From NCBI GenBank assembly GCA_000002435.2, contig CM018789.1: DNA of 64,000 nucleotides; one strand, 5' to 3'. The notes beneath the pieces were generated by a model that did no database searches, was not told where the DNA came from, and was given only the letters and a program-made list of their open reading frames with translations. This document shows positions 1 to 19,255 of this stretch, piece after piece. The position numbers were made by a program, and so were the translations under genes. This DNA is from Giardia intestinalis (Eukaryota). The first letter of the stretch is position 1. Each line of letters opens with the position of its first letter.

Positions 1-592
1 AGTGCCTAACTGTCCTTGCCGGTGGCATTGCACAGCGAGTGCCCTGGAGGCGCCATCATGACTACGCTTTTCTGCTCTTTTGCTTACAGAGGCCATTACT
101 GTCTGTCCGCTCATGACACCATAAACACACAAGGTCAATCCCCCTGGCACTTTACTCAGAGGTGCGCCGGCTCTTTCGGAGAAGCGCTTCTCTGTGTAGC
201 TGTCTAGTGAACAGACCAGACACGGTGGTGCTATCAGCCAAGCCACTGCTGGGCAGAGCACACGGCCTGTATCTGCTCGTCTCGTGCTCTAGCCAGCCAC
301 CCCGCGTGAGCATCTGGAGGCGTGCCTGGACATATGCGTGGTATTCTGCGGTGTGCACGGTCTCGTGTCCGCACAGTAGGCCAGCCAGGGAGCGTGTGCA
401 GGCACGTCATGTGGCACCACGTCCTTTGTGGAATGCTGGAGGACCACACAGGCGAGGGTCTACCATCAAGATACGGACACGTTGCTTCCTGACATGGAAG
501 GTCAATGAGGCTATCCAGATGGCCCAGCCACGGTAGAAGGCTAGCAGATGTGATCGTATTGGCCACCAGCACTGTCACTAATACCAACATGC

Positions 593-3400
593 ATGATTAA
601 TAGATCTAGCAGGGCCGCAATGTTGCTACTAGTTCTTTGCTTTTTGATGAGCGCTCTCGCTGCACAATGCAAGGGGCACCAGCACTCCAACTGCGCAACC
701 GGCTGGTGCAGGGCGGTCCGTGGCGTCGAGGTCTGTATGAGGTGCAAAGCGGGCCACGTGCTGATCGACGGAGTGTGCGCTGATAACTCTGTTGTCTACG
801 GCGCGGGGTCCGCCTGCCAGATTCTAAACTGCAAGCAGTGTAACGCGGACAACACGCAGTGCGAGCAGTGCGAGGACGGATACACGCCGAGCGCCGGGAA
901 TACCCAGTGCAACGAGGACGCCGCGTCCGCCTGCCAGATTCTAAACTGCAAGCAGTGTAACGCGGACAACACGCAGTGCGAGCAGTGCGAGGACGGATAC
1001 ACGCCGAGCGCCGGGAATACCCAGTGCAACGAGGACGCCGCGTCCGCCTGCCAGATTCTAAACTGCAAGCAGTGTAACGCGGACAACACGCAGTGCGAGC
1101 AGTGCGAGGACGGATACACGCCGAGCGCCGGGAATACCCAGTGCAACGAGGACGCCGCGTCCGCCTGCCAGATTCTAAACTGCAAGCAGTGTAACGCGGA
1201 CAACACGCAGTGCGAGCAGTGCGAGGACGGATACACGCCGAGCGCCGGGAATACCCAGTGCAACGAGGACGCCGCGTCCGCCTGCCAGATTCTAAACTGC
1301 AAGCAGTGTAACGCGGACAACACGCAGTGCGAGCAGTGCGAGGACGGATACACGCCGAGCGCCGGGAATACCCAGTGCAACGAGGACGCCGCGTCCGCCT
1401 GCCAGATTCTAAACTGCAAGCAGTGTAACGCGGACAACACGCAGTGCGAGCAGTGCGAGGACGGATACACGCCGAGCGCCGGGAATACCCAGTGCAACGA
1501 GGACGCCGCGTCCGCCTGCCAGATTCTAAACTGCAAGCAGTGTAACGCGGACAACACGCAGTGCGAGCAGTGCGAGGACGGATACACGCCGAGCGCCGGG
1601 AATACCCAGTGCAACGAGGACGCCGCGTCCGCCTGCCAGATTCTAAACTGCAAGCAGTGTAACGCGGACAACACGCAGTGCGAGCAGTGCGAGGACGGAT
1701 ACACGCCGAGCGCCGGGAATACCCAGTGCAACGAGGACGCCGCGTCCGCCTGCCAGATTCTAAACTGCAAGCAGTGTAACGCGGACAACACGCAGTGCGA
1801 GCAGTGCGAGGACGGATACACGCCGAGCGCCGGGAATACCCAGTGCAACGAGGACGCCGCGTCCGCCTGCCAGATTCTAAACTGCAAGCAGTGTAACGCG
1901 GACAACACGCAGTGCGAGCAGTGCGAGGACGGATACACGCCGAGCGCCGGGAATACCCAGTGCAACGAGGACGCCGCGTCCGCCTGCCAGATTCTAAACT
2001 GCAAGCAGTGTAACGCGGACAACACGCAGTGCGAGCAGTGCGAGGACGGATACACGCCGAGCGCCGGGAATACCCAGTGCAACGAGGACGCCGCGTCCGC
2101 CTGCCAGATTCTAAACTGCAAGCAGTGTAACGCGGACAACACGCAGTGCGAGCAGTGCGAGGACGGATACACGCCGAGCGCCGGGAATACCCAGTGCAAC
2201 GAGGACGCCGCGTCCGCCTGCCAGATTCTAAACTGCAAGCAGTGTAACGCGGACAACACGCAGTGCGAGCAGTGCGAGGACGGATACACGCCGAGCGCCG
2301 GGAATACCCAGTGCAACGAGGACGCCGCGTCCGCCTGCCAGATTCTAAACTGCAAGCAGTGTAACGCGGACAACACGCAGTGCGAGCAGTGCGAGGACGG
2401 ATACACGCCGAGCGCCGGGAATACCCAGTGCAACGAGAACCCAGAAGCGCGGTGCAATACTCCCAACTGTAAGACCTGTGACAACCCCAAAACAGGCAAT
2501 GAAATCTGCACTAAATGTAATGATGGCGACTACCTCACCCCTACAAACCAGTGCGCACATGACTGCACAGCCATCAGCGGATACTACGGAGATACTGACA
2601 AGAAGTGTAAGCCATGCAGCCCTGAGTGCGCTGAGTGCGTTGGGCCAGCCAACAATCAGTGTAGTGCTTGTCCTGCAGGCAAGGCATTAACATATGGAGG
2701 TGGTGATCCTGCCCAAGGGGGCACCTGCGGGGATGCGTGTACGGCGGACAAGAACGGATGTAAGGTCTGTGGGGCAAGGATCGGCGGGACAGACTACTGC
2801 TCCCAGTGCTCAGTGGGTACTCAGGCTCCTCTGAACGGGGTCTGTACGGCCAACGCGCGTGCTCAGTTCTGCACACAAGTTACCAGTGGATCCTGCACGT
2901 CTTGTAGTGGGGGCTACTTCCTCAAGAATGGTGGCTGTTACCAGGCAGATAGACAGCCAGGCAAACAGATATGTACACTAGCTGATAGCAATGGTGGATG
3001 TCAGGCGTGTGCCAATGGTCTTCCTCCTAGTTCTTCTGACGTATGCCCCTCGTGTCATTTCACCTGCAAGACATGCTCGACCGCAGACATTGCAAATACT
3101 TGTACAACGTGTGCAACTGGGTACTACATGGTCGGATCAGGGCCAAACACATGTATTTCGTGTGAAAGTGACAGTGGAAGTGTCAAGGGAGTTGCTGGCT
3201 GCATGAGCTGCGCTCCTCCATCTAGCAATACTGGCTCCGTTCTCTGCTACCTCATGAACGGTGACAGTGCCGGCGGGAGCACGAATAAGAGCGGCCTTAG
3301 CACAGGTGCCATCGCTGGCATCTCTGTGGCTGTCATCGTCGTCGTCGGGGGACTCGTCGGCTTCCTCTGCTGGTGGTTCATCTGCAGGGGCAAAGCGTAG
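593..3400 (+). CDS. Variant-specific surface protein (VSP), 935 aa. It has an N-terminal hydrophobic signal region, 14 tandem 39-aa CXXC-rich repeats, a cysteine-rich body, a C-terminal TM helix and a CRGKA tail. The alternative ATG at 620 (MLLLVLCF...) is possibly the true start.
   Basis: ATG at 593 and stop at 3398-3400. Many CXXC motifs (CKQC, CEQC, CKTC). The C-terminus ...GAIAGISVAVIVVVGGLVGFLCWWFICRGKA matches the Giardia VSP hallmark. The VSP 3' element follows the stop. Confidence 0.9.
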   Translation: MINRSSRAAMLLLVLCFLMSALAAQCKGHQHSNCATGWCRAVRGVEVCMRCKAGHVLIDGVCADNSVVYGAGSACQILNCKQCNADNTQCEQCEDGYTPSAGNTQCNEDAASACQILNCKQCNADNTQCEQCEDGYTPSAGNTQCNEDAASACQILNCKQCNADNTQCEQCEDGYTPSAGNTQCNEDAASACQILNCKQCNADNTQCEQCEDGYTPSAGNTQCNEDAASACQILNCKQCNADNTQCEQCEDGYTPSAGNTQCNEDAASACQILNCKQCNADNTQCEQCEDGYTPSAGNTQCNEDAASACQILNCKQCNADNTQCEQCEDGYTPSAGNTQCNEDAASACQILNCKQCNADNTQCEQCEDGYTPSAGNTQCNEDAASACQILNCKQCNADNTQCEQCEDGYTPSAGNTQCNEDAASACQILNCKQCNADNTQCEQCEDGYTPSAGNTQCNEDAASACQILNCKQCNADNTQCEQCEDGYTPSAGNTQCNEDAASACQILNCKQCNADNTQCEQCEDGYTPSAGNTQCNEDAASACQILNCKQCNADNTQCEQCEDGYTPSAGNTQCNEDAASACQILNCKQCNADNTQCEQCEDGYTPSAGNTQCNENPEARCNTPNCKTCDNPKTGNEICTKCNDGDYLTPTNQCAHDCTAISGYYGDTDKKCKPCSPECAECVGPANNQCSACPAGKALTYGGGDPAQGGTCGDACTADKNGCKVCGARIGGTDYCSQCSVGTQAPLNGVCTANARAQFCTQVTSGSCTSCSGGYFLKNGGCYQADRQPGKQICTLADSNGGCQACANGLPPSSSDVCPSCHFTCKTCSTADIANTCTTCATGYYMVGSGPNTCISCESDSGSVKGVAGCMSCAPPSSNTGSVLCYLMNGDSAGGSTNKSGLSTGAIAGISVAVIVVVGGLVGFLCWWFICRGKA
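811..2448 (+). repeat. 14 head-to-tail copies of a 117-bp (39-aa) coding tandem repeat, ASACQILNCKQCNADNTQCEQCEDGYTPSAGNTQCNEDA. Copies appear nucleotide-identical, with the last unit ending NENPEA.
   Basis: Period 117 is seen directly (for example gcctgccagattctaaactgcaagcagtg at 811, 928, 1045 ...). The length difference between the two VSP ORFs, 935-428 = 507 aa, equals 13 x 39. Confidence 0.95.
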
Positions 3401-3404
3401 ATGT

Positions 3405-3419
3405 ACTTAGATAGTAAAC
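3405..3419 (+). promoter_or_regulatory. VSP-type extended polyadenylation element ACTTAGATAGTAAAC (contains AGTRAAY), 5 nt after the VSP stop.
   Basis: Exact match to the conserved VSP 3' motif ACTYAGRTAGTRAAY. The mirror copy lies at 6074..6088 on the minus strand. Confidence 0.7.
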
Positions 3420-6073
3420 GCGTCACTGTATAAAGCATATTATACTGTGATGGGGCCCTGCCTGTGGGAGCGTCCAGAAATCCCACGAGTAAGTCTCGCC
3501 CACGTCTTGGCCAATCTGAGAGCGAGAACTGGTTGTAGACAGCAAGCAGGGACTCCTCTTTATTAGTGTATCTAAAACTTGGCACCTTCTCCGGTCGCTC
3601 TGTGGGTGTGTGCTCAGTCTGGGTGTGCACGTCGGCCGTTTCGGGGTTCAGGCCTTCTCGCAGACTCTCTGGTCCACCAGTGGCGCCTCTCCTTGGTCTT
3701 CCTTCACGGTGAGTGAAGCCCGGGCCGCTGTCTTTTTTAGATGCCCCCGTCTGTCAGGGGCTGCCATCGGGCTCTCCGCTGGCTGGGCCCCTCGGTGTCC
3801 GTCCGGCTGTGGTTCTGGGTCAGCGCTTCCACAGTCGCGGTCACTTGGGTCTCAGTGGGCCGGCTGGTGGGTGGGGCGGGGGTATGGGCGGTGAGGACTG
3901 GTGGGACCGGGTGGGGGCTGAGATTGGTGTCCGTATGTGCTCCTGGGTTCGGTGGGCCATTGCGGCGGTGGGTGATCCCCTCTCTGTTTGCCAAGGTGGT
4001 TGTGTCTGATCCCCAGCCTTCGTTGCACTCCCGAGACACAGGCACCGACGATCGTGTCGTGTCCCCTGACTGAGCGCCTCCCTTGGCCCCTGCATGCCTC
4101 GGGCAGTACTGCTGCTCTGGTTGACTGGTACATGAGGGATGAGGCAGGCCATCGCAGCCTCTCCTGCTACTCGCTGATGCTCTGTGCGGGTCTGCTGGGC
4201 CCCTGGCATGCCCTGTCCAGTGCCTCGACGTAGTTCACCTCGGCCAGCAGGGGTGTGGATGAGCCGGTGGATGGGATGGGTTCTCTCAGGCCTCTAGTGT
4301 GATGGCCCAGAAGACTGGCACGGTGGGGCACTGGTGGCTGCACTGTCCCCGTGGTCAGCTGTGCTGCTCCTGGTGGGTCCTTGTCATGGAGCGCTGTGTG
4401 TTGTTCATAGGCAGAGGTGAGCCTCCTTGGTTTCAAGATGCTCTACCATGCAGAGAGGAGCACGCTGAGGGTCACCCATACCTCACATCTGCTGTGCCCG
4501 TTCGGGAGTTCCCGGTGTGGTCCACCAGGACCTTGACACCTCTCGTGGCTCTGATGACCCCTCGAGGAGAGCCGGGGTGTCCTATGCCAGGGGAGGCGTG
4601 CACCCTCCTGCATGAGCTGGGACCCACTGCACTGCCCTCAAGGAGGTCTGCTATGAGAGGCAGTGGGATGATTGACGGCCCCAGAGTGCGGTGGAGGGTG
4701 CTCGTGGTCATCTCTTGTGATCGGGCATCACTCTGATGGCCAGCTCTGTGCCTGTGTGGTGCTCAGAGGCCACCTGTCTGCCTCATCGCCTGCTGGACAG
4801 CCGGGTCTCTTGTGGTGTCCGAAGGCCTCCTCACTCCTCTGGCTGCTGCCCCCTCGGGTCATCAATGAAGACAGTCGAGGCCAGCGGAGTCTTCGGTGAG
4901 TCTGGTGCCTGCCTGGGTGTCATGGGGGCTGGCAGCTGTCAGGGCTCTGCCACTGCTCACCTGCCTGGAGTGTGCCTCCCTTGGACCTACTGTGCTGCGT
5001 GAGTCCTCTGGCTTCCTATCAGGCCCTGACTGTGAGGGTGACCCCACCTGGTCCTCTGATGCCCCTGTGGATGAGCATAGCAATGTGTCTGATTGAGGAT
5101 CTCTGGTGCCCGTGTCTGTTGCTGCCTCTCGGGTGCTCGGGTAGTTGCCTGGCACTCTCGTATGGGGGCACAGTCAGCGTGTCCCGAGCAGACTCCAGTC
5201 CTCTCTGGGTCCACACAGTCTGTTCGTGTGTGGATGATCCTCCTGCACTCAGGTCCATCTGTGCACACTATCACTCAGCCTCGAGAGCAGGCCAGTGCAG
5301 TCGCCAGGGTTGCTGTCAGAGGGAGTCGTCTGCCACTACATCGCTCGAGCAGACTCTACAGATCAGGCTGGCTGCTGTGCACCCTCATGGCAGGGCTGCC
5401 TGACTCCCCTTGGTCATCCTCTCTGTCCCGGTGTGCACGGCTCCTGAGGGTTGTCTGGGTGGAGGCACTCACAGACCACGAGCACACAGAGGGGTGAGTC
5501 ATAGATGGACAGCCATCAGTCACCACAGCTGCGATCACCCCAGTCTATCGAGGGACCAGGGGCACATACAGACACCCACCACCCGGTCCCACCAGTCCTC
5601 ACCGCCCATACCCCCGCCCCACCCACCAGCCGGCCCACTGAGACCCAAGTGACCGCGACTGTGGAAGCGCTGACCCAGAACCACAGCCGGACGGACACCG
5701 AGGGGCCCAGCCAGCGGAGAGCCCGATGGCAGCCCCTGACAGACGGGGGCATCTAAAAAAGACAGCGGCCCGGGCTTCACTCACCGTGAAGGAAGACCAA
5801 GGAGAGGCGCCACTGGTGGACCAGAGAGTCTGCGAGAAGGCCTGAACCCCGAAACGGCCGACGTGCACACCCAGACTGAGCACACACCCACAGAGCGACC
5901 GGAGAAGGTGCCAAGTTTTAGATACACTAATAAAGAGGAGTCCCTGCTTGCTGTCTACAACCAGTTCTCGCTCTCAGATTGGCCAAGACGTGGGCGAGAC
6001 TTACTCGTGGGATTTCTGGACGCTCCCACAGGCAGGGCCCCATCACAGTATAATATGCTTTATACAGTGACGC

Positions 6074-6088
6074 GTTTACTATCTAAGT
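6074..6088 (-). promoter_or_regulatory. VSP-type polyadenylation element (mirror copy) for the right-arm VSP.
   Basis: Plus strand reads gtttactatctaagt, the reverse complement of ACTTAGATAGTAAAC, immediately 3' of the minus-strand stop at 6093. Confidence 0.7.
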
Positions 6089-6092
6089 ACAT

Positions 6093-7379
6093 CTACGCTT
6101 TGCCCCTGCAGATGAACCACCAGCAGAGGAAGCCGACGAGTCCCCCGACGACGACGATGACAGCCACAGAGATGCCAGCGATGGCACCTGTGCTAAGGCC
6201 GCTCTTATTCGTGCTCCCGCCGGCACTGTCACCGTTCATGAGGTAGCAGAGAACGGAGCCAGTATTGCTAGATGGAGGAGCGCAGCTCATGCAGCCAGCA
6301 ACTCCCTTGACACTTCCACTGTCACTTTCACACGAAATACATGTGTTTGGCCCTGATCCGACCATGTAGTACCCAGTTGCACACGTTGTACAAGTATTTG
6401 CAATGTCTGCGGTCGAGCATGTCTTGCAGGTGAAATGACACGAGGGGCATACGTCAGAAGAACTAGGAGGAAGACCATTGGCACACGCCTGACATCCACC
6501 ATTGCTATCAGCTAGTGTACATATCTGTTTGCCTGGCTGTCTATCTGCCTGGTAACAGCCACCATTCTTGAGGAAGTAGCCCCCACTACAAGACGTGCAG
6601 GATCCACTGGTAACTTGTGTGCAGAACTGAGCACGCGCGTTGGCCGTACAGACCCCGTTCAGAGGAGCCTGAGTACCCACTGAGCACTGGGAGCAGTAGT
6701 CTGTCCCGCCGATCCTTGCCCCACAGACCTTACATCCGTTCTTGTCCGCCGTACACGCATCCCCGCAGGTGCCCCCTTGGGCAGGATCACCACCTCCATA
6801 TGTTAATGCCTTGCCTGCAGGACAAGCACTACACTGATTGTTGGCTGGCCCAACGCACTCAGCGCACTCAGGGCTGCATGGCTTACACTTCTTGTCAGTA
6901 TCTCCGTAGTATCCGCTGATGGCTGTGCAGTCATGTGCGCACTGGTTTGTAGGGGTGAGGTAGTCGCCATCATTACATTTAGTGCAGATTTCATTGCCTG
7001 TTTTGGGGTTGTCACAGGTCTTACAGTTGGGAGTATTGCACCGCGCTTCTGGGTTCTCGTTGCACTGGGTATTCCCGGCGCTCGGCGTGTATCCGTCCTC
7101 GCACTGCTCGCACTGCGTGTTGTCCGCGTTACACTGCTTGCAGTTTAGAATCTGGCAGGCGGACCCCGCGCCGTAGACAACAGAGTTATCAGCGCACACT
7201 CCGTCGATCAGCACGTGGCCCGCTTTGCACCTCATACAGACCTCGACGCCACGGACCGCCCTGCACCAGCCGGTTGCGCAGTTGGAGTGCTGGTGCCCCT
7301 TGCATTGTGCAGCGAGAGCGCTCATCAAAAAGCAAAGAACTAGTAGCAACATTGCGGCCCTGCTAGATCTATTAATCAT
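6093..7379 (-). CDS. Variant-specific surface protein (VSP), 428 aa. It has the same N- and C-termini as the 593..3400 VSP but only one 39-aa repeat unit.
   Basis: The ORF-track protein starts MINRSSRAAMLLLVLCFLMSALAAQCKG and ends ...WWFICRGKA, identical to the left VSP apart from 13 missing repeat units. Confidence 0.9.
   Translation of the reverse strand: MINRSSRAAMLLLVLCFLMSALAAQCKGHQHSNCATGWCRAVRGVEVCMRCKAGHVLIDGVCADNSVVYGAGSACQILNCKQCNADNTQCEQCEDGYTPSAGNTQCNENPEARCNTPNCKTCDNPKTGNEICTKCNDGDYLTPTNQCAHDCTAISGYYGDTDKKCKPCSPECAECVGPANNQCSACPAGKALTYGGGDPAQGGTCGDACTADKNGCKVCGARIGGTDYCSQCSVGTQAPLNGVCTANARAQFCTQVTSGSCTSCSGGYFLKNGGCYQADRQPGKQICTLADSNGGCQACANGLPPSSSDVCPSCHFTCKTCSTADIANTCTTCATGYYMVGSGPNTCISCESDSGSVKGVAGCMSCAPPSSNTGSVLCYLMNGDSAGGSTNKSGLSTGAIAGISVAVIVVVGGLVGFLCWWFICRGKA
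7045..7161 (-). repeat. Single 117-bp unit in the right-arm VSP, matching the 14-copy array at 811..2448.
   Basis: Coordinate mapping from the left arm. The right VSP protein contains one ...SACQILNCKQCNADNTQCEQCEDGYTPSAGNTQCNENPEA. Confidence 0.8.
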
Positions 7380-10300
7380 GCATGTTGGTATTAGTGACAG
7401 TGCTGGTGGCCAATACGATCACATCTGCTAGCCTTCTACCGTGGCTGGGCCATCTGGATAGCCTCATTGACCTTCCATGTCAGGAAGCAACGTGTCCGTA
7501 TCTTGATGGTAGACCCTCGCCTGTGTGGTCCTCCAGCATTCCACAAAGGACGTGGTGCCACATGACGTGCCTGCACACGCTCCCTGGCTGGCCTACTGTG
7601 CGGACACGAGACCGTGCACACCGCAGAATACCACGCATATGTCCAGGCACGCCTCCAGATGCTCACGCGGGGTGGCTGGCTAGAGCACGAGACGAGCAGA
7701 TACAGGCCGTGTGCTCTGCCCAGCAGTGGCTTGGCTGATAGCACCACCGTGTCTGGTCTGTTCACTAGACAGCTACACAGAGAAGCGCTTCTCCGAAAGA
7801 GCCGGCGCACCTCTGAGTAAAGTGCCAGGGGGATTGACCTTGTGTGTTTATGGTGTCATGAGCGGACAGACAGTAATGGCCTCTGTAAGCAAAAGAGCAG
7901 AAAAGCGTAGTCATGATGGCGCCTCCAGGGCACTCGCTGTGCAATGCCACCGGCAAGGACAGTTAGGCACTGCCAATAGGCCAGTCTGCGTCAGTAAACA
8001 CGCAGTGTTCGCAGGCCGAACCATGTACCTTTGCAAGCGGGCAGTGTAACCATTTCAACTTTTAATGCTGTTAAGCGATCTGTATAGTCCGCTTCATCTG
8101 GACGCCTCACGTGCCTTCGCCGCAACCACTGCTTCCATCTCGCAAGCCAACCATGCTATTGATGGAATGAGGCAGCAATACATCCGCCGCCCTTAATTCG
8201 CCCAGGCTGCCAATTCCACCCTGCAAGCTGCCCGCCACCTACCGTAGATCGATGTGGATGCATACTGCGGTGTGGTTGGGCCTGGAATAAGCAGATCTCA
8301 ACTGGGAGTCAGTCTCCTACTCTCCGTCGTCTGGCTCTGTCTCTGGTGTGAGCAGGACCATGCAACCACGAAAGACATCAGCTCCCTGCCAGTAGACAAT
8401 ATGCGCTGCAGAATAGGAGAACGTAGTGGGCCCCTAAGCTGCCCCGCTCGAGGAGCCGCTGCTTCTTTAACAGGGTTGCCCGACGACAGCAGGCACCAGT
8501 ATGGCTACCAGGCCCTTCTGGCTCTGACTTGCAGAGCATCCCCAGCACCGCTCCGGTAAGAGCTGTCTTTCCTATTGGCTTCTGCCGTCCGGGCGTCAGT
8601 TATGGCGAGAATTAACCCTTGCCCATTGGTACTGGTCGAACACTCACTACGTGTTGCTCGTCTAGGAAAGATTGATCTTGCCGCTCCACGGGCTATTCGC
8701 CATGCTGGATGACGAACATATGTGCCACTCAGCCCCTAGTCTTTATTGGATGCAAGGCCAGCTATGCAGGGTTACAGGGCCGCCTCGCCATCCTTAAGTT
8801 GAGCTCTTAGAAGTGTCCTACGTTTTACTAGACGCAACCTAGGTCCGTCCAACTCTATGCTTTATACTAATTCTAGATTGGGTTAAGCGTGCCTGGTAGT
8901 GAAGGTATCTACGGTACTTCCACTCACCGTGAGCAGTTCATAGAAGCCCCTGTGGCTCATCGCCTTCAATACTTGTGCGTTCACTCATCGATACCTCCGC
9001 GTTATTCAGCATAACTATAGTATGTCACCTGTATGCGTCAAGCTACAGCTCCTAAGTGTCTTACAGCAAATACCTTGCGTCTGAGCACCTGGTTAATTCA
9101 GCATCCACGCGTATAAAACATGATAGAAGTCTGTGGAGTATGGTGGCTTCCATTTTCTCTTTCCCCTTTTCTGACTCTGGTTGACTTTATCTTTGCTGGG
9201 TCAAATATGCACTATCTACGCGCACCTTAATGTTAACGGCACTCGTATGTCCTGCCAGGTCATATAAATCTTTATCAGCCGTTGCATGATAATTGTCTGG
9301 CATAATATGCAATCTGGTATTGAATGAAGAATAAAGCGCCCACTTTTGTAATGAGGACTTGTTGTGCTTATGCTGGGAAATAATAGATGGTCAAGTATAA
9401 CCGTACAAGGCTGTAGGACACTCTGCTGGACGATTTTATGAGTATAGGAAGCTGCCTGCTTTAACCTACAGCTCATTTCATTCACGTCATAAGCATTTTG
9501 CCACACAAGATCACTTTAAAAGCATTCTGTGATTACCAGACATCTTTTGATACCAGTCCCGGGTCAACAAAGCAAGCTGCTTATTGTAATTTGGAAAATT
9601 GGGTAACGGCTCCATGGATTCTTGGGTATCATGCCCACTAATCAGCAACTACCAAATATCCTACTTCGCATCTACTTTTTGCAATCTGTTTTTTGTAAGA
9701 CGGCGACTGAAGCGCTAATGGCTCAGTTTCCTAGACCATCCATATCTCTACATAAAGGTTGCCATCGGAAGTCTCCATAAATAGAACATGCAAACTCGAC
9801 AGACAAGCTTCTAGTATCAGCCTTCTCACAATGTATCTATGACAACGGGTCTGTCTTTAGTCAATCGATACTTATCCAGAGAACAGTAGCGCGGCAGTAG
9901 TATAGATGATTATTACGTAGCTTATGCAGGGGCTTGTTGTCAGCAACAAGAGATAAAACAACCTTAGCCTTACAAGATTAAAAGTTCCACATTAGCTAAA
10001 AACGATAGGCTCAGTGACCATTTTTCATGCCACTCACCAAACTTAAGCCGTTTACAGATTTGACGTTTAGTTGCTCTTACAATCTTTACTCTGCTGGTTG
10101 TCTGTTTGTTTGGATCTCTAGTTAAGGTTGGGCCAGTCTGCAATCTTACTCGTGCTCAATTGCGTGACACGCCATAACCATAATATCATTTATGATCTAG
10201 CCATCTATTGCAGGCGCTACTTGCTACATCAGAAACAATGACCGTGGATCCATTACCTTCCCTTTGGTGGTCAAAGTATCATAAGGGACAGACTCTTCTC

Positions 10301-11899
10301 ATGTGCTGGTTGGGCCGCTTAATCTTGTCAGTACAAACTTCTCTCACGATTCAAGCTAGTTGTGATAGTGATGGCATAATTTCCCTAGCAATCAGTTACT
10401 CAGTTCAATCCTTGCCTCAATATTATAACGAGTTGGACGCCTTGAGTCACAACGAGTCGGTGAAATTAGTATCTCAAAGCTTGCACGGATGTAAAGCATC
10501 GCGTTGGACATCACTGGATAAAGGCATGTACCAGTTGAGAATTGGTGCAACTTCTGGCTAACTCTTGAAGGCCCACGCTCCCTAACATGAACGTGGACAA
10601 GGCCAATCCCAGGCTCTGCGCCATATGGGTTTGTCACGAAGTCCTTGCCAGTAGGCACACAAAGCGACTGTTCTTGTCGCTTTTCTCGTGCTGTCGGTCT
10701 TGATTTGTCCTCTATGCGGCGTGGTGCAGTAGACAACCTCACCCCCTATGACCTTCCGTTGCGCAGCTCGTAACTGCTGTACACAATGCGTCTGCAAAGA
10801 GCCGACATGACAACGGCCCTATTTGGATGCTGCCCATGCAGAACCAGGCTTACGACTGCGTCTTGCAGCTATTAGCCGTGTATTCCATTTACTGCTGATT
10901 GCCTGGTCTATTATCACATATCTATGTATTGGCAAAGCAAGGCCCGTCCTTTTCTCGAAGGCAATAAAGCAATCTATTTGATCTACACCTTGCGCCCTTA
11001 AGCATATATCGGAAGACTACAATCAGCTCGTTCTGACTAGACTACATCATGGAAGGCATGAAAGGTCAGTTGGGTTTGTAACATACAGTGACGTAAAGTC
11101 ATTCGCGTCTCTTCAAAGCACCAAAGCAGCCCGCAAAAGTGTTCATTCAGATGGCTTTCTATCTCCATGTGACGATGCTCATGTGGATTTTCAGTACATT
11201 TACAGTGGTATTTCTGTGCGGCTCACATGTCTTATGAAAGTCTATGTTACCGATAGCTGGATGCAGATCTTCCTATTCTGTAAGATATTCATCGTCGTTC
11301 AACGTGTTCATAGCATGACATATCTGGCGTTTGCCTAGTTTGCCAATGCAAGTGCTTTCACTCTATGCTTACAAAAAGCACGAAGCCCAAGGGAGGATGG
11401 CCACAACCCCGAGGAGCGTGTATACAGCTGGCGACTTTAAGGGCCTACGTGAAAAGTACTAATATCCGTCCATGATTGCTCTTACAGTACTTTAATAATA
11501 GGCTAATAATAGATTCCCTGATGGCTATGCAGGATGGTATGTACCACCTGCAATGTTGAAAGATGTCCCAGCATGTACAGAAACACGTTGTGTACCCTAG
11601 AATCTACCAGTGATACTGGTGTGTAGAAGCAATTCATATATAAGAAGCGGTGTGCACAGACTCACTAAGAATGAGGAGGATAATTGGCAAGCAAAATAAG
11701 CTCTTACATTATTTCAAGAAGCATGCATTCACGACTTGGAGCTAAGAATGACGTATAAGTTATTTGAAAGCATAACACACTTAGAGGCAGAGCTGCAAAT
11801 CGCCTTTATCATATACAGGCAGTCACGTGGAACCATGCATGAAGATTCATGTTGTGGCACACCTTCACAGCTTCGTGGTTGGCGTCACGCCCAAGACCT

Positions 11900-12424
11900 C
11901 TAATCATCGGTGAGATCAATAGTGCTATTGCTAAGATCAATGACTGGAACCCGCTTCAGAGCCCGTTGGTGCGCAATGTATCTTACCTCTTGGTAGTAGT
12001 TGTGGCAGGCACGGATTGTAAGTCCAGCGGCCTGGTTAATTCGGTGCGCTTGTGCGTGCCAGACGGGCCCGTGATGCACTCGCTCGAACACCTTCAGTCT
12101 GAAAAGGTAGGCGTGGATCATCTCATGCACCAGCACGTCGAGCAGGTCGTGTTGTGAACGATATTGGAGTAGAGGTGCAGATAGGATAATTACAATAGGA
12201 CTATGCTCTTCTGTTCGCGTCCCTCTGTATTTGCATAGACCTGCAGAACGTGTTAGCCTATTGCTCCAATGAACCACAACATCTCTCAGGCAATTGTCGA
12301 AAAAAGCCTCGTTGAAATGCCTAAAGAGCGCGTGCACATCACCAAAAGGCCAGTGTTGTGTTTCTAGTTCCTGAGAGGTAGGTGGTGGGGCAGCAAAAAA
12401 GTCCAGGAGGGGGTTGCTATCCAT
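11900..12424 (-). CDS. Minimal SprT/Spartan-like zinc metalloprotease (DNA-protein crosslink repair protease family), ~174 aa. The track ORF begins at a GTG at 12697; in-frame ATGs at 12583 and 12565 are alternative starts, but the SprT domain begins right after the ATG at 12424.
   Basis: ...FNEAFFDNCL...WSNRLTRSAGLC...LLDVLVHEMIHAYLF...HGPVWHAQAHRIN...TIRACHNYYQEV closely parallels the human SPRTN core (LLHEMIHAYLF, HGPEF, HRIN). The HExxH motif is present. Confidence 0.65.
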   Translation of the reverse strand: MDSNPLLDFFAAPPPTSQELETQHWPFGDVHALFRHFNEAFFDNCLRDVVVHWSNRLTRSAGLCKYRGTRTEEHSPIVIILSAPLLQYRSQHDLLDVLVHEMIHAYLFRLKVFERVHHGPVWHAQAHRINQAAGLTIRACHNYYQEVRYIAHQRALKRVPVIDLSNSTIDLTDD

Positions 12425-12428
12425 TTTT
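12425..12428. promoter_or_regulatory. Four-nucleotide A/T spacer (TTTT within ccaTTTTTatg) between the divergent start codons of the SprT-like (-) and Nei-like (+) genes; presumed shared bidirectional initiator.
   Basis: Minus ATG at 12424..12422 and plus ATG at 12429..12431. Giardia promoters are short A/T-rich initiators abutting the start codon. Confidence 0.4.
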
Positions 12429-13847
12429 ATGCCAGAGCATCCTGAGGTTCGAGCCTTCGCAGAACGCATAACGTTTGAGGCAGAGCACACTCTCTTTACT
12501 AACGTCTCTACTTCGAGGGCGTGTGTGTATAAGGCCCTCCCACCTTTGTTCCTTGATGATTCCATAAAAGTAGCATTTACCATAAGGTGCGAATCTCGAG
12601 GCAAGCAGCTCCGAGTTGACCTGGCTCGGGCAGCTGATCCACCTAGGAATGAGGCAAAGAGTATTTTTGTGCGTCTGAAAAGAAATACATCTGACACCTC
12701 AGAGACACCCTATGATTTGTGCAAAACAACCGCTTTAAGCCGCCCCTGGGAACACTCAGATCACGCTGTGGCGCTTACCATACCAACCAGTATCGTGATT
12801 GGCCTGGGATTAGCAGGCTGTATCAACACCTTCTTAACCCCAGAGGAAGCTTTGAAGTCTAACGCACATCTCTTGTTTGAGGCATCTGATGCTGTGTTAG
12901 CAGTATGCTCGCCACGGCCAGAGACCATGTACTGGCGAGTAGGAGACTTCGACCATGCACGGTCCCCTGATCCTGTGGCACAGTACCTAGACTATGTGTC
13001 CAAGATACTGTCCAAACTGTCACATATTCCTATAGGTCTTGACGGGTCTTTCATTGTGCCACCCAAGTCGATATTTTCACAACCCATATGCCGGCTTCTT
13101 TTGTCTCAGGAATTGTTCAACGGAGTAGGGAATTACCTACGAGCAGAGGCCATGCACCGACTTCTTATTCACCCTTTCACCCCAAGCGTCTATGTGTTTG
13201 AAGAGCTTATCCATTGGGTTCATGACACCGTGCGAGAAACCCCTCGATTCCACAACTTGAGTAACAAGTGGAGAAGTCTTGCCGAAAAGAATGTCTCTAT
13301 TATCGAGACCAAGTGCCCACTCATCCCGATGATCAGAAGGCTATGTGAGGAGGCCTATGCTGTTCTGGATGATCACAGACTCTTTTCGGAGTGGCTTTTA
13401 TGCTATAAGAAAGCAACTAATTGCATTCTTGATTCCGGGGGCAGAGAAGTTTGGTTCTTCGAAAAGCTAGTCGCAAACAAATCCAGTCATGCAAGTGAGC
13501 ACGGCGATAAGAAGAATTCTGCTGAGAAGCCAGATGCATGTACCCTGTCAGAGCTCATACTGTCCTCTGAACCTAGTCTTAAAAAGGTTGCAGTACAGCA
13601 ACTGGCTACGTCAAACGCAGAAAATGTCATTCTTAATAGCACGGAGAATGATGCTGATGTCAGCCAGCTAGACATCTTGGAATACTCTCGCAAAGACCTC
13701 CTTCGACGAGGCACGGTACTCGACAATCTTCCAATTGATTCTAGAAACGAGTCAGCTAGTCGATGGCAGGACAAGATTGTTCGGAAGAGTACTGTCCAAC
13801 AATTACATGACGCTCGAACGTTTCAAGCAAGCCTCCAGTCGAAGTAA
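12429..13847 (+). CDS. Fpg/Nei-family (NEIL-like) DNA glycosylase/AP lyase, 472 aa. True start is the ATG at 12429 (MPEHPEV...); the track start at 12414 is upstream of it.
   Basis: The N-terminus MPEHPEVRAFAERI matches the Fpg/Nei catalytic Pro2-Glu3 signature (MPELPEV, MPEGPEL). The H2TH motif LLSQELFNGVGNYLRAEAMHRLLIHPFTPS matches E. coli Fpg [26 protein letters not shown]. No C-terminal CxxC zinc finger is seen. Confidence 0.65.
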   Translation: MPEHPEVRAFAERITFEAEHTLFTNVSTSRACVYKALPPLFLDDSIKVAFTIRCESRGKQLRVDLARAADPPRNEAKSIFVRLKRNTSDTSETPYDLCKTTALSRPWEHSDHAVALTIPTSIVIGLGLAGCINTFLTPEEALKSNAHLLFEASDAVLAVCSPRPETMYWRVGDFDHARSPDPVAQYLDYVSKILSKLSHIPIGLDGSFIVPPKSIFSQPICRLLLSQELFNGVGNYLRAEAMHRLLIHPFTPSVYVFEELIHWVHDTVRETPRFHNLSNKWRSLAEKNVSIIETKCPLIPMIRRLCEEAYAVLDDHRLFSEWLLCYKKATNCILDSGGREVWFFEKLVANKSSHASEHGDKKNSAEKPDACTLSELILSSEPSLKKVAVQQLATSNAENVILNSTENDADVSQLDILEYSRKDLLRRGTVLDNLPIDSRNESASRWQDKIVRKSTVQQLHDARTFQASLQSK

Positions 13848-13865
13848 AGCAGAGAGTCCGCGGGC

Positions 13866-14399
13866 CTATATCTGCCTGACCATTATCTTATCATCCAAGG
13901 AGTACAGAAGGTGGTCGCTATACAGCTGTACAATGGGAGGCGGCTCTGTTTCAGAGATGGGCATTGTGCTTCTACAATACTGGTCTACAATCTCTAACTG
14001 ATCAGATACCTTCATGATCGTGTAGTGGTTTGCAAGAAAGAGGGCAGAACGGGCGTTGAGTAATCGTGTAAACGGGGGTTGGTGACACAGCTGGCTGTTC
14101 AACTGTTCAACCCTCTGCACCCTCAGCGGCTGCAGGCTGCCTCTCATGGCCAAGAGGTTGAGCCCGTCGGTTCCGACGGTGTAGAGCACTTGCTTGCAGG
14201 TGAGCGCGGAGTCGAAAATGGGATACGAGGGGGCCAGCTGGGCGTGTGTGTGAAGAAGGGCGTTCCTTATCAGATCCCAGACCTTCACAGACCCGTCGAT
14301 GCTGGTGGAAACCAGCGCGCTGTCGGCGACGTGCAGCGACGTCACCGCGTGGCTGTGAGAAAGGGTCGTGGCGGGGTGGGGCGGAAAAGCGTGCACCAT
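13866..14399 (-). CDS. Small ORF (177 aa) with two WD40-like blades (SIDGSVKVWDL...). It may be a fragmentary or decayed WD-repeat gene. The opposite-strand ORF 14079..14495 is Gly/Arg-rich and likely an artefact.
   Basis: ATG at 14399. WD-like GS..WD motifs are present, but the ORF is too short for a full propeller and the upstream context is GC-rich rather than A/T-rich. Confidence 0.25.
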   Translation of the reverse strand: MVHAFPPHPATTLSHSHAVTSLHVADSALVSTSIDGSVKVWDLIRNALLHTHAQLAPSYPIFDSALTCKQVLYTVGTDGLNLLAMRGSLQPLRVQRVEQLNSQLCHQPPFTRLLNARSALFLANHYTIMKVSDQLEIVDQYCRSTMPISETEPPPIVQLYSDHLLYSLDDKIMVRQI

Positions 14400-14523
14400 G
14401 CGGGAGTCGGACCCGCCCCAACAGCTTGGAAGGCTGTCATGCTAGCCGATACACCAATGGTGCCCGGCGCGCCGCATAAACAGCGGATAAATTAGTATGT
14501 GCTTTGAATGGTCTGGTTCAGAT

Positions 14524-15072
14524 TTACTCGGGATTGGCGGTGCGGATGAACTCGTCGAGGAGGTTCTCCTCTGGGAGCGCACGCCACCGGGTCCGCTCGG
14601 TCCCCCGCAGTGCTTCTTGCTGCCGCTGGAGCCGCTCGATGGTCTCTCGCTCACGAGCTTTGTGTACTCTTGCTTCCTCTGCGTAATTTGTAACGGCATC
14701 GATGAATTGTTTAACACCAGCAAAGGCGGTGCGGATCAGCCGCATCTCTGCAGAATCAGATGGAGGCGCAGGAGTGGTTATGTGACCCTTCTCTAGGAGC
14801 TCTCGCCGCTCTATGGAAATAGCATCCTGCAGGCGGCGCTCATACTTCTCACGCTCAACAGCCTTTTCTCGCCCTTCGCGATTGAGCATAACAGGACCGT
14901 GATCCGTTGTATTCAGGTTCTTGTTGACGATACGGCCAACTGCACTCGTAAGTTGCTCCGCGTCGTTATAGCCTAGATGCTTGCGCTTTGGCTCCCCTTC
15001 ATGTGCTGATGGTTCTGATGCAGAGTCACTGATGCTATCTGGGAGGTAGGAGATGTCTGTGTCCGATGACAT
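14524..15072 (-). CDS. Hypothetical protein, ~182 aa. The track ORF starts at a GTG at 15102; the first ATG is at 15072.
   Basis: ATG preceded by an A/T-rich ctaaaaattgtaatagt. Coding-like composition with a charged helical C-terminal half. No family recognised. Confidence 0.4.
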   Translation of the reverse strand: MSSDTDISYLPDSISDSASEPSAHEGEPKRKHLGYNDAEQLTSAVGRIVNKNLNTTDHGPVMLNREGREKAVEREKYERRLQDAISIERRELLEKGHITTPAPPSDSAEMRLIRTAFAGVKQFIDAVTNYAEEARVHKARERETIERLQRQQEALRGTERTRWRALPEENLLDEFIRTANPE

Positions 15073-15098
15073 ACTATTACAATTTTTAGAAGTGCGTG

Positions 15099-15734
15099 TC
15101 ACCCTACGAGCACAGCAGATCCTTTGATTACATGGTCCTCAACGGCATCGAAGTGGACTGCGAGTTGATCATCTACCGCCACAACAGTCTCTGTATCGAA
15201 AGATGTGATAGTGGTAGCTTGGAGAAAGCGTACAACCACAACCTTGCTACGGAGAAGGATAAGCTGTCGACTAAGGGTTTCGCGGAGCTCCTTTTGGAAG
15301 GAGGCTTCTGGGTCCAATTCTGTTGCATGGTTGGACAGTATGGCTTTAATGGGTTGAAAAATGGTTGTATTGAGCAACTGGTGCGACAACTCAAGAAAGG
15401 CTCTGGCGGCATCCTGCTCATTTTCAGTGAGGTACTTTTGTAGCTCCGTCTGCATATATAGAAATGGCTTATCGCTGAGCTTTGAAAGCCGTAGACGCAC
15501 ATAGTCTTCGAAAATGAAGCGTAGCCGCTCCATGTGTAGGTGAACCATGTCTCTATGAACCTTGTCATACATTGCTATTCTGTCTTGAGATTTCGACAGG
15601 TATTCCTTAACTGTATCAAGCACCTCTTGCTCGCGCGGAAGAACGATGGGACTATAGCGCTCGTTGTTCCACAGCTGCAGAAACCTGTCGTATGCCCGTT
15701 TATTCTGTTCACTGGCCTCAAGTAGCCCGGCCAT
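15099..15734 (-). CDS. SLD5: GINS complex subunit Sld5 (GINS4), 211 aa.
   Basis: FLQLWNNERYSPIVLPREQEVLDTV vs human LEQAWMNEKFAPELLESKPEIVECV. VHLHMERLRFIFEDYVRLRL vs IHQMEMERIRYVLSSYLRCRL. The C-terminal VVVRFLQ...IKGSAVLVG vs VFLRVRE...VASGAVQLI. Confidence 0.7.
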   Translation of the reverse strand: MAGLLEASEQNKRAYDRFLQLWNNERYSPIVLPREQEVLDTVKEYLSKSQDRIAMYDKVHRDMVHLHMERLRFIFEDYVRLRLSKLSDKPFLYMQTELQKYLTENEQDAARAFLELSHQLLNTTIFQPIKAILSNHATELDPEASFQKELRETLSRQLILLRSKVVVVRFLQATTITSFDTETVVAVDDQLAVHFDAVEDHVIKGSAVLVG

Positions 15735-15746
15735 GAGGCAGCTAAT

Positions 15747-16964
15747 TTATTTACTGCAGCTGTCATTGACGTCTGGAGACTGGGGTTGCAGATCTTTATA
15801 TGTGTCCTTCGGCAGTACACACACTCCGAGATAAGCTTCCCGCCATAGATTAAGAAGTTGTCGACATATGGGCCGCAATGACCTATCTAGATCATCAAGT
15901 TCAGGGCGGGATACTGCACTGTTCATTAAAAGTAGCTCATGTCCAGCACCCACAGATGTCAGTAGCCCCATTTTTCTGTCGGAGCCGTGGAGCATAAGGC
16001 TTTGTCGAGCACTATGAAACGCGGAGGATAGTTCCCTTGTGCGTAGATGTGCAGCCAATGAATCAAGTCCTTGCATAATCTTCTTTCCAACAAGCCTACT
16101 CTGGCCAGGCCCCATACAGACCAATACACTTGCACCGTGAAATACCATGAGACTTGCAGACGCAAATGGGGCCAGCGTCTTATTTAAAAGTGGGACGAAA
16201 GCCAAAGCTGCATCTGTCTCACGGCCAGGCTGAACAGGAAATGCTAAGACAGTCTCTGGTATGCGTGTATATGGTGAGATGTATGAGTGTATCCTGTTGT
16301 CGAACAAATTAATGTTCAGTCGCGAGACCGGTTGTTGCCAGAAATCAGTGACCTGGGAGATAGATCCGTGAATATTGTTGCCTGAAAGGGTGTCCATTGC
16401 CTTACTAATATCCACGTCATTACCAGATAGAATGTAGACAGCCTTGGCAGGGTCAAGCAGCTTGTCCGTGAACTCCTTGTATGCTCCATTTTTCATTCGT
16501 CCATAAAGACCAATCTCTGCCAGTATCGGATTCGCCAGGGGGCTATCTCTGAAGACATGATGCAAAACAAGTTCCTTTGCATGCTCGTAAGGCGTAGCAA
16601 GGACCATGATGGCTTCGTGTTGAATATCATCGTACTCGTTGAGCAGAAGGGGAAGAGGACGCTGTGCACGCGGCAGGAGGTCACGAAGCTGCTCAAGACA
16701 ATCTGTGAGAGAGGGGCGATGGAGCTGAGTGTCTCGCGCATCTGCGGTAAATGCAACGTAGTTTTTAGCAGTGAACCCGTTGAGCTCAATCCCAGCATCC
16801 TCTGCGGCAGTTAGCCTCTGAGTGCGGGACAGACCTTGACCAAATGCCATGTGCTCAGCCAAGTGGGTGAAACCAGCAGTCATCGTAGACTCTACCAGCG
16901 GACCACCACTGAAGACCACGGTAGCGGAGGGAAGCGCTCCTGGAACTATGTCACGGATAAGCAT
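15747..16964 (-). CDS. M16-family (insulinase/MPP-type) zinc metallopeptidase with an inverted HxxEH motif, 405 aa. Candidate single-subunit mitosomal processing peptidase (beta-MPP-like).
   Basis: N-terminal GFTHLAEHMAFGQG matches the MPP-beta GTAHFLEHMAFKGT zinc-binding motif. Size and single-domain architecture fit a reduced MPP. Confidence 0.55.
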   Translation of the reverse strand: MLIRDIVPGALPSATVVFSGGPLVESTMTAGFTHLAEHMAFGQGLSRTQRLTAAEDAGIELNGFTAKNYVAFTADARDTQLHRPSLTDCLEQLRDLLPRAQRPLPLLLNEYDDIQHEAIMVLATPYEHAKELVLHHVFRDSPLANPILAEIGLYGRMKNGAYKEFTDKLLDPAKAVYILSGNDVDISKAMDTLSGNNIHGSISQVTDFWQQPVSRLNINLFDNRIHSYISPYTRIPETVLAFPVQPGRETDAALAFVPLLNKTLAPFASASLMVFHGASVLVCMGPGQSRLVGKKIMQGLDSLAAHLRTRELSSAFHSARQSLMLHGSDRKMGLLTSVGAGHELLLMNSAVSRPELDDLDRSLRPICRQLLNLWREAYLGVCVLPKDTYKDLQPQSPDVNDSCSK

Positions 16965-17141
16965 GGCTAGAAATCTAAATTACTATACTTGGAGAAGGAG
17001 CTCTATCCCCGATTGACCAAGAAATGAAATCGCTACAAAATAGCAAGGAGCCCGTTTGCGAGTGGATGAGGCTAACAGTCCTTATTGAAGAACTTTTTGC
17101 CGCACAGAGAGATCTTTGGACTTTTTAATTTTGAAATCTCA

Positions 17142-18734
17142 ATGTCGCCACTTGATGCCTTTGAAGTAGTGCTGCGACTCAATGATCTAACCCATTTGGC
17201 GCCCAAATCCACTGGAAGTGTATGCAAGCTGATGTGGTCCGACTATACAGAGAGGGGCAAGCTGTTTTCTGAGGCCGCCGTGACAACTAAGGATGAACTT
17301 ATTTCCTTCTCTCTTTCGTTTCTGCACAACCCCGCTTCTTCGTCCAGTGCTCTCCTTGCAGCAGTCCTCTTCCGCCTTTCAGACTTCTGCCAGTGGTGCT
17401 CCGATTTCGAACAGAGGCTCATTACAAGACTCGATCCCCAGCTATTCAATCAGTTGGTGGCGTCCTTTGAAAAAGAGAGAAACCTCAATCGGCATGTGTT
17501 GTACTATGAGCGCGGAGACGAGGCCTTCTCCTACACACCTCTGGCAAGTGGAGAAAATCCCATATCCCACAAGTTCACTACGGGGTGCTACCTTTGTGCA
17601 TTAGACACGCTGCTGGCACAGTTAGCTCACAGCGTGACAGTAAGCATGCCCCTCTTCTTCAGTGTGTGTAGAACTGCCGATCGCCTTATGGATATCATAG
17701 CAAACTTCAAGCTAGTATACACACCTCTCATTGAGAAGAGTCTGCCTCTCCTGGCAAAGCTCATGATGAACCCCGTTCTCTTTGCCTTTATTCTCACCGC
17801 AGAGACGTTTGACCACGGATCAGTGGACAGAGCTTACATGGATCAATACGCAGACGACTATTACAACGCCCATGCAGACAGCATGATTACCGGGCTTTCT
17901 GGAGAGCAAGAGCGCCAGACGCTTTCTCCAGGTTCCCCACGGACAGTTGCCGGAAGTAAGCTTCTTCCACTCTTCATTAACATGATAGTCAGCCACCTGC
18001 CACGCGTGAGTAACCAGAAGTCGGTTGAGTTTCCAATAATATATGGCTGCCTTCTTTGCATATGGCTCAGCTCCTTCGTCGAAAAGCGCTCCTTGTTAAC
18101 ACAGGGCATCTTTGTCCTTATCGTAAGGATACTGAACTGTACCATCCTTCAGAATGTTGCTAAAATTGTTCGTCTGTCGCTCAAGATCCTTTTGAACGTT
18201 AGCACTCTCCCCGAGGCGGTAGATTTTATGGCAGCATCCCAGCTGGATGCCGTTCTTGTCGTTATGGAAGGCAAAGGATGGCAGGAGTCTAAGGAAAACC
18301 CCTCAGGATGCATATACACCTTACTCAGGGAGCTCCGTGCCATTCTTGAACAAACTATCAAGAAGGTGACAACCTGGGAAACGTACTTGGCGGAACTTAA
18401 GTCAGATCTTCTTGGGAACACTCCTGTGCACACGAGCGAAGCATTTTGGAAGGCCAATTCGCACAGGCTTCTTGATAATTCCGCCTATGCCCTTAACCGC
18501 CTAGAGCAGATTGGCACGAAGGCATACAAGTCTGACACCAATTCGCTACTTGTCTGCTTGAACGACATTGGGATGTTCTGCATAAGCTACAGCAATGGCA
18601 GAAACGTGGTAGCCCAAATGCCCAACATCAAAGCATTTGTTATGTCCTGTCTGCAGCACGAGGCCGAAACCGTTCGTGACGCTGCCATCGTGACCCTTTC
18701 GAAGGTCCTCGTGGACAACTGGCGCAATGTGTGA
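17142..18734 (+). CDS. VMA13: V-type H+-ATPase subunit H (Vma13/ATP6V1H), ~530 aa. The track start at 17085 is a TTG; the first ATG is at 17142.
   Basis: YLAELKSDLLGNTPVHTSEAFWKANSHRLLDNSAY vs yeast YVAELDSKLLCWSPPHVDNGFWSDNIDEFKKDNY. The C-terminal ...ETVRDAAIVTLSKVLVDNW resembles ...DPEVRYNALLAVQKLMVHNW. Confidence 0.65.
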   Translation: MSPLDAFEVVLRLNDLTHLAPKSTGSVCKLMWSDYTERGKLFSEAAVTTKDELISFSLSFLHNPASSSSALLAAVLFRLSDFCQWCSDFEQRLITRLDPQLFNQLVASFEKERNLNRHVLYYERGDEAFSYTPLASGENPISHKFTTGCYLCALDTLLAQLAHSVTVSMPLFFSVCRTADRLMDIIANFKLVYTPLIEKSLPLLAKLMMNPVLFAFILTAETFDHGSVDRAYMDQYADDYYNAHADSMITGLSGEQERQTLSPGSPRTVAGSKLLPLFINMIVSHLPRVSNQKSVEFPIIYGCLLCIWLSSFVEKRSLLTQGIFVLIVRILNCTILQNVAKIVRLSLKILLNVSTLPEAVDFMAASQLDAVLVVMEGKGWQESKENPSGCIYTLLRELRAILEQTIKKVTTWETYLAELKSDLLGNTPVHTSEAFWKANSHRLLDNSAYALNRLEQIGTKAYKSDTNSLLVCLNDIGMFCISYSNGRNVVAQMPNIKAFVMSCLQHEAETVRDAAIVTLSKVLVDNWRNV

Positions 18735-18982
18735 CGCCCTGGTACGGGCCTTTGCGGGGCCCATGTTTAAGTAAAGGACTGCGTGGATGGGATCCTTCCC
18801 CTTGCTTCTGGTGTACCGTGCGGCAGTCTTTGACAGAGACCACTGCGAGAAGAACTGGTGGTGAGGGTTCACGAGACAGAGTAGGGTAATAAAGAACACA
18901 CCAGAGTAACACAAGGGTGCAGTTTTTTCTCGCCAATTGACTTTGCAAAGGTAATTTACTCGTATCAATTTATAGGTATCGG

Positions 18983-19255
18983 ATGTCTCTCGAACTTCAG
19001 ATATCTAAGGTTAAACGGATTACCAAGCTTGCGGCGCCCTCCCATGTAATCAATAAGGACACTATCCGAGCCATTGCATTTGTTGCCCAGCGTGTCACGG
19101 CCCATGCCCTACAGTCGGCTATACAGGAATCGAAGCGGAACAAAAAGAAGATAACCGGATACGAGCATTTAGCTGATGCTGTGATACACGCCCCTGGGTT
19201 GGCCTTCCTTCGTGACACCGTTCCCCATCCCATTCAACTGAATAGGAATGGATAG
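18983..19255 (+). CDS. Histone-fold protein (NF-YC/Dr1/POLE4/CHRAC-like), 90 aa.
   Basis: AAPSHVINKDTIRAIAFVAQRVTAHALQSAIQESKRNKKKITGYEHLADAV fits the H2A-like histone-fold pattern of NF-YC/NC2 (rIKkIMK...A....Ef....l...A...rKTi...d). Confidence 0.5.
   Translation: MSLELQISKVKRITKLAAPSHVINKDTIRAIAFVAQRVTAHALQSAIQESKRNKKKITGYEHLADAVIHAPGLAFLRDTVPHPIQLNRNG

Follow-up and report, generated by a model that had tools for sequence, protein, structure and literature searches.

A tail-to-tail pair of variant-specific surface protein genes in Giardia intestinalis that differ in the number of 117-bp repeat units

How do two surface-antigen genes that lie side by side, and that share their sequence letter for letter, come to encode proteins of very different length? 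The question is raised by the first 8 kb of a 64,000-nucleotide stretch of Giardia intestinalis DNA (GenBank assembly GCA_000002435.2, contig CM018789.1), which we analysed as a whole and call the window. Two genes for variant-specific surface proteins (VSPs) converge here within an inverted repeat. The segment 1..7971 is the tail-to-tail pair vsp87.1/87.2 on chromosome 1 of isolate WB, which corresponds to GL50803_0050392 and GL50803_00112647. Our reading, to which we assign a probability of roughly 70%, is that the members of this pair are the same save for the number of copies of a 117-bp unit (13.93 versus 0.93), and that the short gene would have arisen through the collapse of a longer array. 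We describe the genes, the array, and the arms of the inverted repeat, compare them with earlier records, and then weigh the explanations that compete for the same observations.

Both open reading frames (ORFs) are Giardia VSP genes. The long gene, assigned from its ORF, its Pfam match, and preprint supplements, occupies 620..3400 on the plus strand and encodes 926 amino acids (GL50803_0050392, XP_037901619.1); its frame is open to an upstream ATG at 593, which yields 935 residues. The short gene, assigned by exact look-up and from the preprint supplements, occupies 6093..7352 on the minus strand and encodes 419 amino acids (GL50803_00112647, XP_001707111.2), with its frame open to 7379 (428 amino acids, XP_001707111.1). 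The stretch by which each frame opens ahead of its annotated start is 27 nt long (593..619; 7353..7379 in the mirror copy). The 2007 annotation took the upstream ATG (428 amino acids), and the current one takes the ATG within CAATGTT (419 amino acids), an initiator-like element that can be read at 618..624 (+) around the annotated start codon at 620. Downstream, the extended VSP polyadenylation signal TACTTAGATAGTAAACGCGT lies at 3404..3423 (+), just past the TAG stop (3398..3400); its mirror copy falls at 6070..6089 (-), as placed from the identity of the arms and the left-arm coordinates.

Both products match the VSP family PF03302 in Pfam (E values of 1e-100 and 1e-91; 337.8 and 308.2 bits, with a cut-off of 31.4), and both end in a hydrophobic anchor followed by CRGKA (...AIAGISVAVIVVVGGLVGFLCWWFICRGKA). 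In layout they are ordinary VSPs, with a signal peptide at the front, then a cysteine-rich CXXC ectodomain, and a transmembrane helix ahead of the CRGKA tail. The short product is identical in sequence to XP_001707111 of G. intestinalis WB (ATCC 50803) and 100% identical to P0002. By translation, the 935- and 428-residue products share their first 108 and last 320 residues. The ORFs of the two arms differ by 1521 bp, or 507 amino acids: 13 extra modules bring 507 residues and 78 cysteines to the long product, raising its cysteine count to 131 (43 CXXC motifs) from the 53 (17 CXXC motifs) of the short one. Predicted masses are ~96-97 kDa for the long product and ~43-44 kDa for the short product. 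A preliminary description, made from the letters of the window, had proposed two surface antigens with shared termini and different lengths, built on a repeated 39-residue CXXC module, and these points are upheld here. We infer that both genes are functional.

The difference in length resides in one array at 808..2437 (+), which is in frame with the long-gene ORF (593..3400, +). Tandem Repeats Finder reports it with a period of 117, 13.9 copies, 100% matches, no indels, and a score of 3260, and lists no other array in the first 12 kb of the window. A direct test of periodicity finds the period-117 run to be exact across 1630 bp, which amounts to 13 full units and 109 nt of a fourteenth; the full units (13 of 13) represent one distinct sequence. 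The 38-nt passage from one unit into the next is observed 13 times, compared with 0 expected from shuffled sequence. These junctions carry the octamer GACGCCGC, first at 917..924 (+) and then every 117 nt until 2321..2328. Each unit encodes a 39-amino-acid module with 6 cysteines and 2 CXXC motifs, and a scan of the window finds the 117-bp unit at no other place. Measured by the tandem-repeat criterion for VSP genes, the long gene is a repeat gene (117 bp x 13.93) and the short gene, with 0.93 of a unit, is not. The preliminary description had claimed 14 nucleotide-identical repeats at 811..2448, facing a single unit in the mirror copy. The array is indeed perfect and its units are identical; its boundaries, however, are 808..2437, its complete units number 13, with 109 nt of one more behind them, and the mirror copy holds the 109-nt partial unit only. 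An antisense ORF of 571 amino acids spans the array at 796..2511 (-); it is open only because the unit is free of stops in that frame, and it is a repeat artefact rather than a gene.

Outside the array, the two sides of the locus cannot be told apart. Once 1521 bp (13 units) are taken out of the left arm, 1..3914 is the reverse complement of 5579..7971 with 0 mismatches over 2,393 nt, as had been proposed beforehand. The left arm (1..3914, +) holds the long gene and the right arm (5579..7971, -) the short one. The window begins inside the left arm, so that ahead of the first ATG the comparison of the arms extends over only 592 nt. Two mismatches just past the 2,393-nt identity mark where the inverted repeat ends on its inner side. 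The ORFs are convergent, tail to tail, with 2,692 bp between them, and their flanks remain identical until 514 nt beyond the stop (3400 to 3914). The arms are separated by a unique spacer of 1664 bp (3915..5578; G+C 61%), delimited by the arm boundaries and without recognisable coding content by composition and Pfam; the ORFs of the spacer and of the outer flanks have no Pfam match. Mirror-image ORFs of 118-124 amino acids lie upstream of the two VSP genes at 162..590 and 7382..7810, likewise with no Pfam match; they exist as a mirrored pair simply because they lie inside the arms. An exact look-up of the arm ORF at 7382..7738 returned no record of it as a called gene. Each arm also carries a G-quadruplex-type motif, GGGTGGGGCGGGGGTATGGG, at 3869..3888 (+) and 5605..5624 (-), 26-45 nt from the inner boundary of the inverted repeat and on the coding strand of each gene.

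Comparison of the arms places the single 109-nt partial unit of the short gene at 7056..7164 (-) with unique sequence directly on either side: GGCGCGGG runs into the 109 nt, which run directly into AACCCAGA. The junction octamer GACGCCGC is absent from the short arm. We attempted to derive the octamer from the flanks of the short arm, and no register works, with mismatches at 3 or more of the 8 positions in each.

Perfect in-frame arrays gain and lose whole units through replication slippage, unequal sister-chromatid exchange, and single-strand annealing. Because the unit is exactly 39 codons long, copy number at vsp87 is free to change without breaking the frame. We infer that units have come and gone here by these routes, through misalignment of perfect head-to-tail repeats while DNA is replicated or breaks are repaired, and the short gene would represent the full collapse of such an array. 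The first unit and the partial unit at the end of the array share 109 nt of perfect homology, and a single homologous deletion that joins them would convert the long form into the short one without a scar. The identity of the remainder of the arms may reflect a recent duplication or homogenisation by gene conversion. The outcome would be a locus with a product pair in which an antigen of ~96 kDa carries a 14-fold repeated epitope and its partner of ~43 kDa carries the epitope in one copy. As to direction, collapse is favoured because one scarless deletion suffices, while the reverse needs a non-homologous start plus further gains. On this argument from parsimony, loss in the short arm would be the somewhat more probable polarity.

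The locus has a history in the literature. The supplements of a preprint (bioRxiv 10.1101/2022.03.07.483299) place both genes on chromosome 1 (NC_051856.1), list GL50803_00112647 with 419 amino acids and GL50803_0050392 with 926 amino acids and 131 cysteines, and give the TACTTAGATAGTAAACGCGT 20-mer in Table S6 for both GL50803_0050392 and GL50803_00112647. The GL50803_0050392 entry starts with the same sequence as window 620..3400 and agrees with it in the cysteine count (131). In Additional file 1 of Adam et al. (2010; PMC2996952), vsp87.1 (GL50803_112647) is a member of a tail-to-tail inverted pair with 623 amino acids, 64.2 kDa, 83 cysteines, and 27 CXXC motifs; CAATGTT is given as the vsp87 initiator, and vsp87.2 appears as the partner with the flag TR117 and the repeat number 5. 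A gene built in silico with five extra units, that is, a 6-unit version, has 623 amino acids, 64.2 kDa, 83 cysteines, and 27 CXXC motifs, exactly as in the vsp87.1 entry. Table 5 of the same survey gives, for gene 87, a 3' divergence of 514 nt and an ORF-to-ORF distance of 2393. The window agrees exactly with the first value, and the distance is 2692 here versus the tabulated 2393. Distances in Table 5 exceed those of Xu et al. by one in 7 of the 8 other tail-to-tail pairs; our guess is that 2393 is a misprint of 2693, or that the assemblies differ.

The pair has been classified in more than one way. Adam et al. counted it among 14 'identical' pairs and warned that repeat numbers were possibly condensed by assembly (PMC2996952). 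Xu et al. (2020) listed 19 duplicated pairs, without the vsp87 pair. The preprint confirmed 20 pairs, termed these two genes 'non duplicated VSP genes', and stated that 'no duplicated VSPs have repeats' (bioRxiv 10.1101/2022.03.07.483299). The near-identity of the pair seems to have been overlooked in the later surveys because pairs were defined there by complete identity. The same preprint describes the intergenic region of the pair as 'very similar' to that of 14586/d14586 on chromosome 5 (2,689 bp versus 2,692 bp), which suggests that the 3' flank and spacer form a cassette common to unrelated VSP pairs. Earlier publications already contain the genes, their tail-to-tail layout, the 117-bp repeat, and the principle that VSPs vary in size with the number of repeats. 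Two details seem to be unreported: the near-identity of the pair despite its 'non duplicated' label, and the lack of a unit junction in the short arm. Exact look-up of the long product from either start codon found no match in a collection of 15 billion proteins, where absence is not evidence, and a homology search with the long query missed even the identical short protein.

Several points weigh against our reading. The per-arm copy number rests on the published assembly, and in the 2010 catalogue the pair is entered as identical, with 6 units implied rather than 14 and 1. The polarity rests on parsimony, and the junction would also arise if an imprecise initial duplication picked up filler bases and the array then expanded. 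Homology searches found no ortholog with the unit in other isolates that could serve as an outgroup. Finally, most reads in RNA sequencing (RNA-seq) map to both genes.

On another view, the asymmetry is an artefact of assembly or consensus: the arms would truly be similar in unit number, or the four genome copies would differ and one length would have been chosen for each arm. Perfect arrays within an inverted duplication are hard to assemble, polishing with Quiver could mask variation between units, and Adam et al. both warned of condensed repeats and entered the pair as identical (PMC2996952). The preliminary description had raised the same caution about assembly, and fairly so, given that the Sanger-era catalogue implies 6 units and 623 amino acids. 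The reference assembly, on the other side, was built with HGAP and Quiver from PacBio RS II reads at 200x with a read N50 of 12.7 kb, and no misassemblies were reported after split-read checks. The array is 1.63 kb long and lies 1.5 kb from the unique spacer; because the N50 far exceeds the array plus this distance, single reads are able to tie array length to arm, and at 200x they span the array and spacer many times. Nor are the two forms peculiar to that assembly, since the 428-residue short form (XP_001707111.1) was already in the independent Sanger annotation of 2007 and the 2010 catalogue has a form with several units; both have been seen in separate data. Exact look-ups of the two VSP products and one arm ORF yielded no independent DNA of the locus, look-ups of neighbouring housekeeping genes yielded only short-read contigs that end ~6 kb before the pair, and scans of public metagenome contigs gave 0 matches to the short-form signature and 0 to the unit junction. 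On balance, the asymmetry between the arms is very likely real, and an artefact is quite improbable. The 6 units implied in 2010 and the 14 of the 2020 reference may differ because repeats were condensed in the Sanger assembly, because the four genome copies carry alleles of different length, or because the number changed between culture stocks.

If the asymmetry is real, the array could have grown rather than shrunk. The preliminary description took the single-unit arm as ancestral and the long arm as having recently gained 13 units by slippage or unequal exchange. In favour of this, the 13 units do not differ from one another, as a young expansion would give; VSP arrays vary in length among alleles and paralogs (PMC2996952); and 6 units in the Sanger era versus 14 now could represent growth in culture. 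Yet less than one unit offers nothing to misalign, which makes the first step non-homologous. The short arm has no template for the 8-nt junction, whose origin would call for filler synthesis or for 3 substitutions within 8 nt, compared with 0 in 2,393 nt; after that first duplication, twelve more gains would be needed. With GACGCCGC not derivable from the short arm, and the reverse change explained by one scarless deletion, we consider recent expansion from a single unit unlikely and do not retain it. Alternatively, ectopic recombination or gene conversion could have brought the array into one arm as a copy from a different VSP gene that has repeats. Recombination between VSP genes is documented in the 2010 survey (PMC2996952), and relatives with the same leader hold homologous arrays at the same position. 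A donor is not apparent, however. The unit appears nowhere else in the window, and each gene's repeat was unique in the 2010 survey (PMC2996952). No other protein with the unit was found in a collection of 5.8 billion clusters, in a search that also missed the identical short protein; the best non-self matches (69-76%) lay outside the array. We regard such copying as very improbable, and collapse of the array in the short arm remains the explanation we prefer.

Tandem repeats that set the size of a VSP have precedents, and the comparison with them shows what is particular to vsp87. The near-identical paralogs vspA6 and vspA6-S1 differ in repeat number (~23 copies versus about one), copy number differs between alleles of vspA6 and of vspC5, and the repeats of VspA6 are reported to be immunodominant (PMC2996952). 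The title of a 1994 paper cited in that survey attributes VSP size heterogeneity to the copy number of tandem repeats. The preliminary description had suggested a layer of size variation at this locus; the size difference is present, but the idea is not new, having been described for vspA6/vspA6-S1 and vspC5 (PMC2996952), and the locus itself was already catalogued. The vspA6 (CRP170, vsp67) and vspA6-S1 (G3M, vsp175) genes of WB carry scattered substitutions and are not partners in one inverted duplication. The vsp87 partners, unlike them, lie tail to tail, 2.7 kb apart, with 0 substitutions. Compared with the identical inverted VSP pairs (vsp1267 and 13-19 others), vsp87 is likewise convergent, and its 2,692 bp between ORFs and divergence at 514 nt lie inside the published limits of 2.2-3.8 kb and 139-729 nt. 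It departs from them in that its ORFs are not identical (1521 bp off), and it is missing from the lists of 19 and 20 pairs.

A closer relative in sequence is the vspC5/vsp108 (GL50803_102662) group with its shared 5' region, whose leader, MLLLVLCFLMSALAAQ, is the same as that of the vsp87 pair. In vsp108 (XP_001705986, P0004), an array of homologous cysteine modules lies directly before the conserved NPEARCNTPNCKTC segment, as in the long vsp87 gene. Its unit is 105 bp (35 amino acids) versus 117 bp (39 amino acids) here, the remaining protein is 65% identical, and it is without the 47-amino-acid unique segment that precedes the array here. Arrays at this position look like a family trait, because the array of vsp108 adjoins the same right flank, NPEARCNTPNCKTC.

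Could both forms be put to use? In the RNA-seq data of the preprint, GL50803_00112647 has values of ~0-11 with uniquely mapping reads; when mapping to two loci is allowed, values are ~12-18 in one sample group and 92-165 in the other (bioRxiv 10.1101/2022.03.07.483299). The values under the two mapping rules fit a partner that shares nearly all of the sequence. We have also considered that the long and short states are maintained as two isoforms of one locus, with gene conversion keeping all but the array identical and with both genes switched on together. Joint switching would follow from the identical promoters (within the window) and identical 3' signals; still, we hold this to be a doubtful proposition. 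If it were true, this would be the only inverted VSP pair with partners distinguishable by size, and it would allow direct tests of expression from both members of a pair, and of whether array length drifts from one laboratory stock to another (the 2010 catalogue implies 6 units, the 2020 reference has 14).

GL50803_0050392 and GL50803_00112647 are a duplicated pair save for repeat number, and so form an exception to the published rule that duplicated VSPs are free of repeats. The pair merits annotation as duplicated with differing repeat number, and its members should be treated as multi-mapping partners in read-mapping studies. In addition, the size difference of 1.5 kb is a natural tag: it could show if an inverted pair has one active member or two, a question that identical pairs cannot answer.

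A predicted structure gives an impression of the module. The short protein was modelled with AlphaFold2 from 50 relatives; the model has a mean predicted local distance difference test (pLDDT) score of 78.9, with a helix predicted at residues 392-416. The predicted ectodomain is long, all-beta, and disulfide-rich, and in it the unit region (residues 71-100) takes the form of small beta-hairpins, with a confidence of ~85-88. Foldseek found no significant match for the model in the PDB (best E value 0.028), and no sequence relative was found among PDB chains. Weak resemblances in the Foldseek results were to the furin-like repeats Fu1-Fu2 of R-spondin, the cysteine-rich domains of the EGFR family, and Pvs25.

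Beyond the locus, the window changes character. G+C content is 55-62% at the VSP locus (1..8000) and 44-52% over 8001..64000; there is no ORF of at least 120 amino acids between 8 and 12 kb, and no VSP-like sequence beyond 8 kb of the window. Published remarks describe the surroundings of VSP genes as GC-rich and gene-poor, and the locus agrees with them. From 12000 to 64000 the window holds ordinary Giardia genes, WD40 proteins included. These genes encode a peptidase M16 (15747..16964), the V-ATPase H subunit (17085..18734), a KH protein (21651..24263), a phosphoglucomutase-like protein (39579..41114), an ankyrin protein (46046..48370), an ERCC4 nuclease (48333..50978), an AAA ATPase (51200..54556), and a CBF/Mak21 protein (55884..58262).

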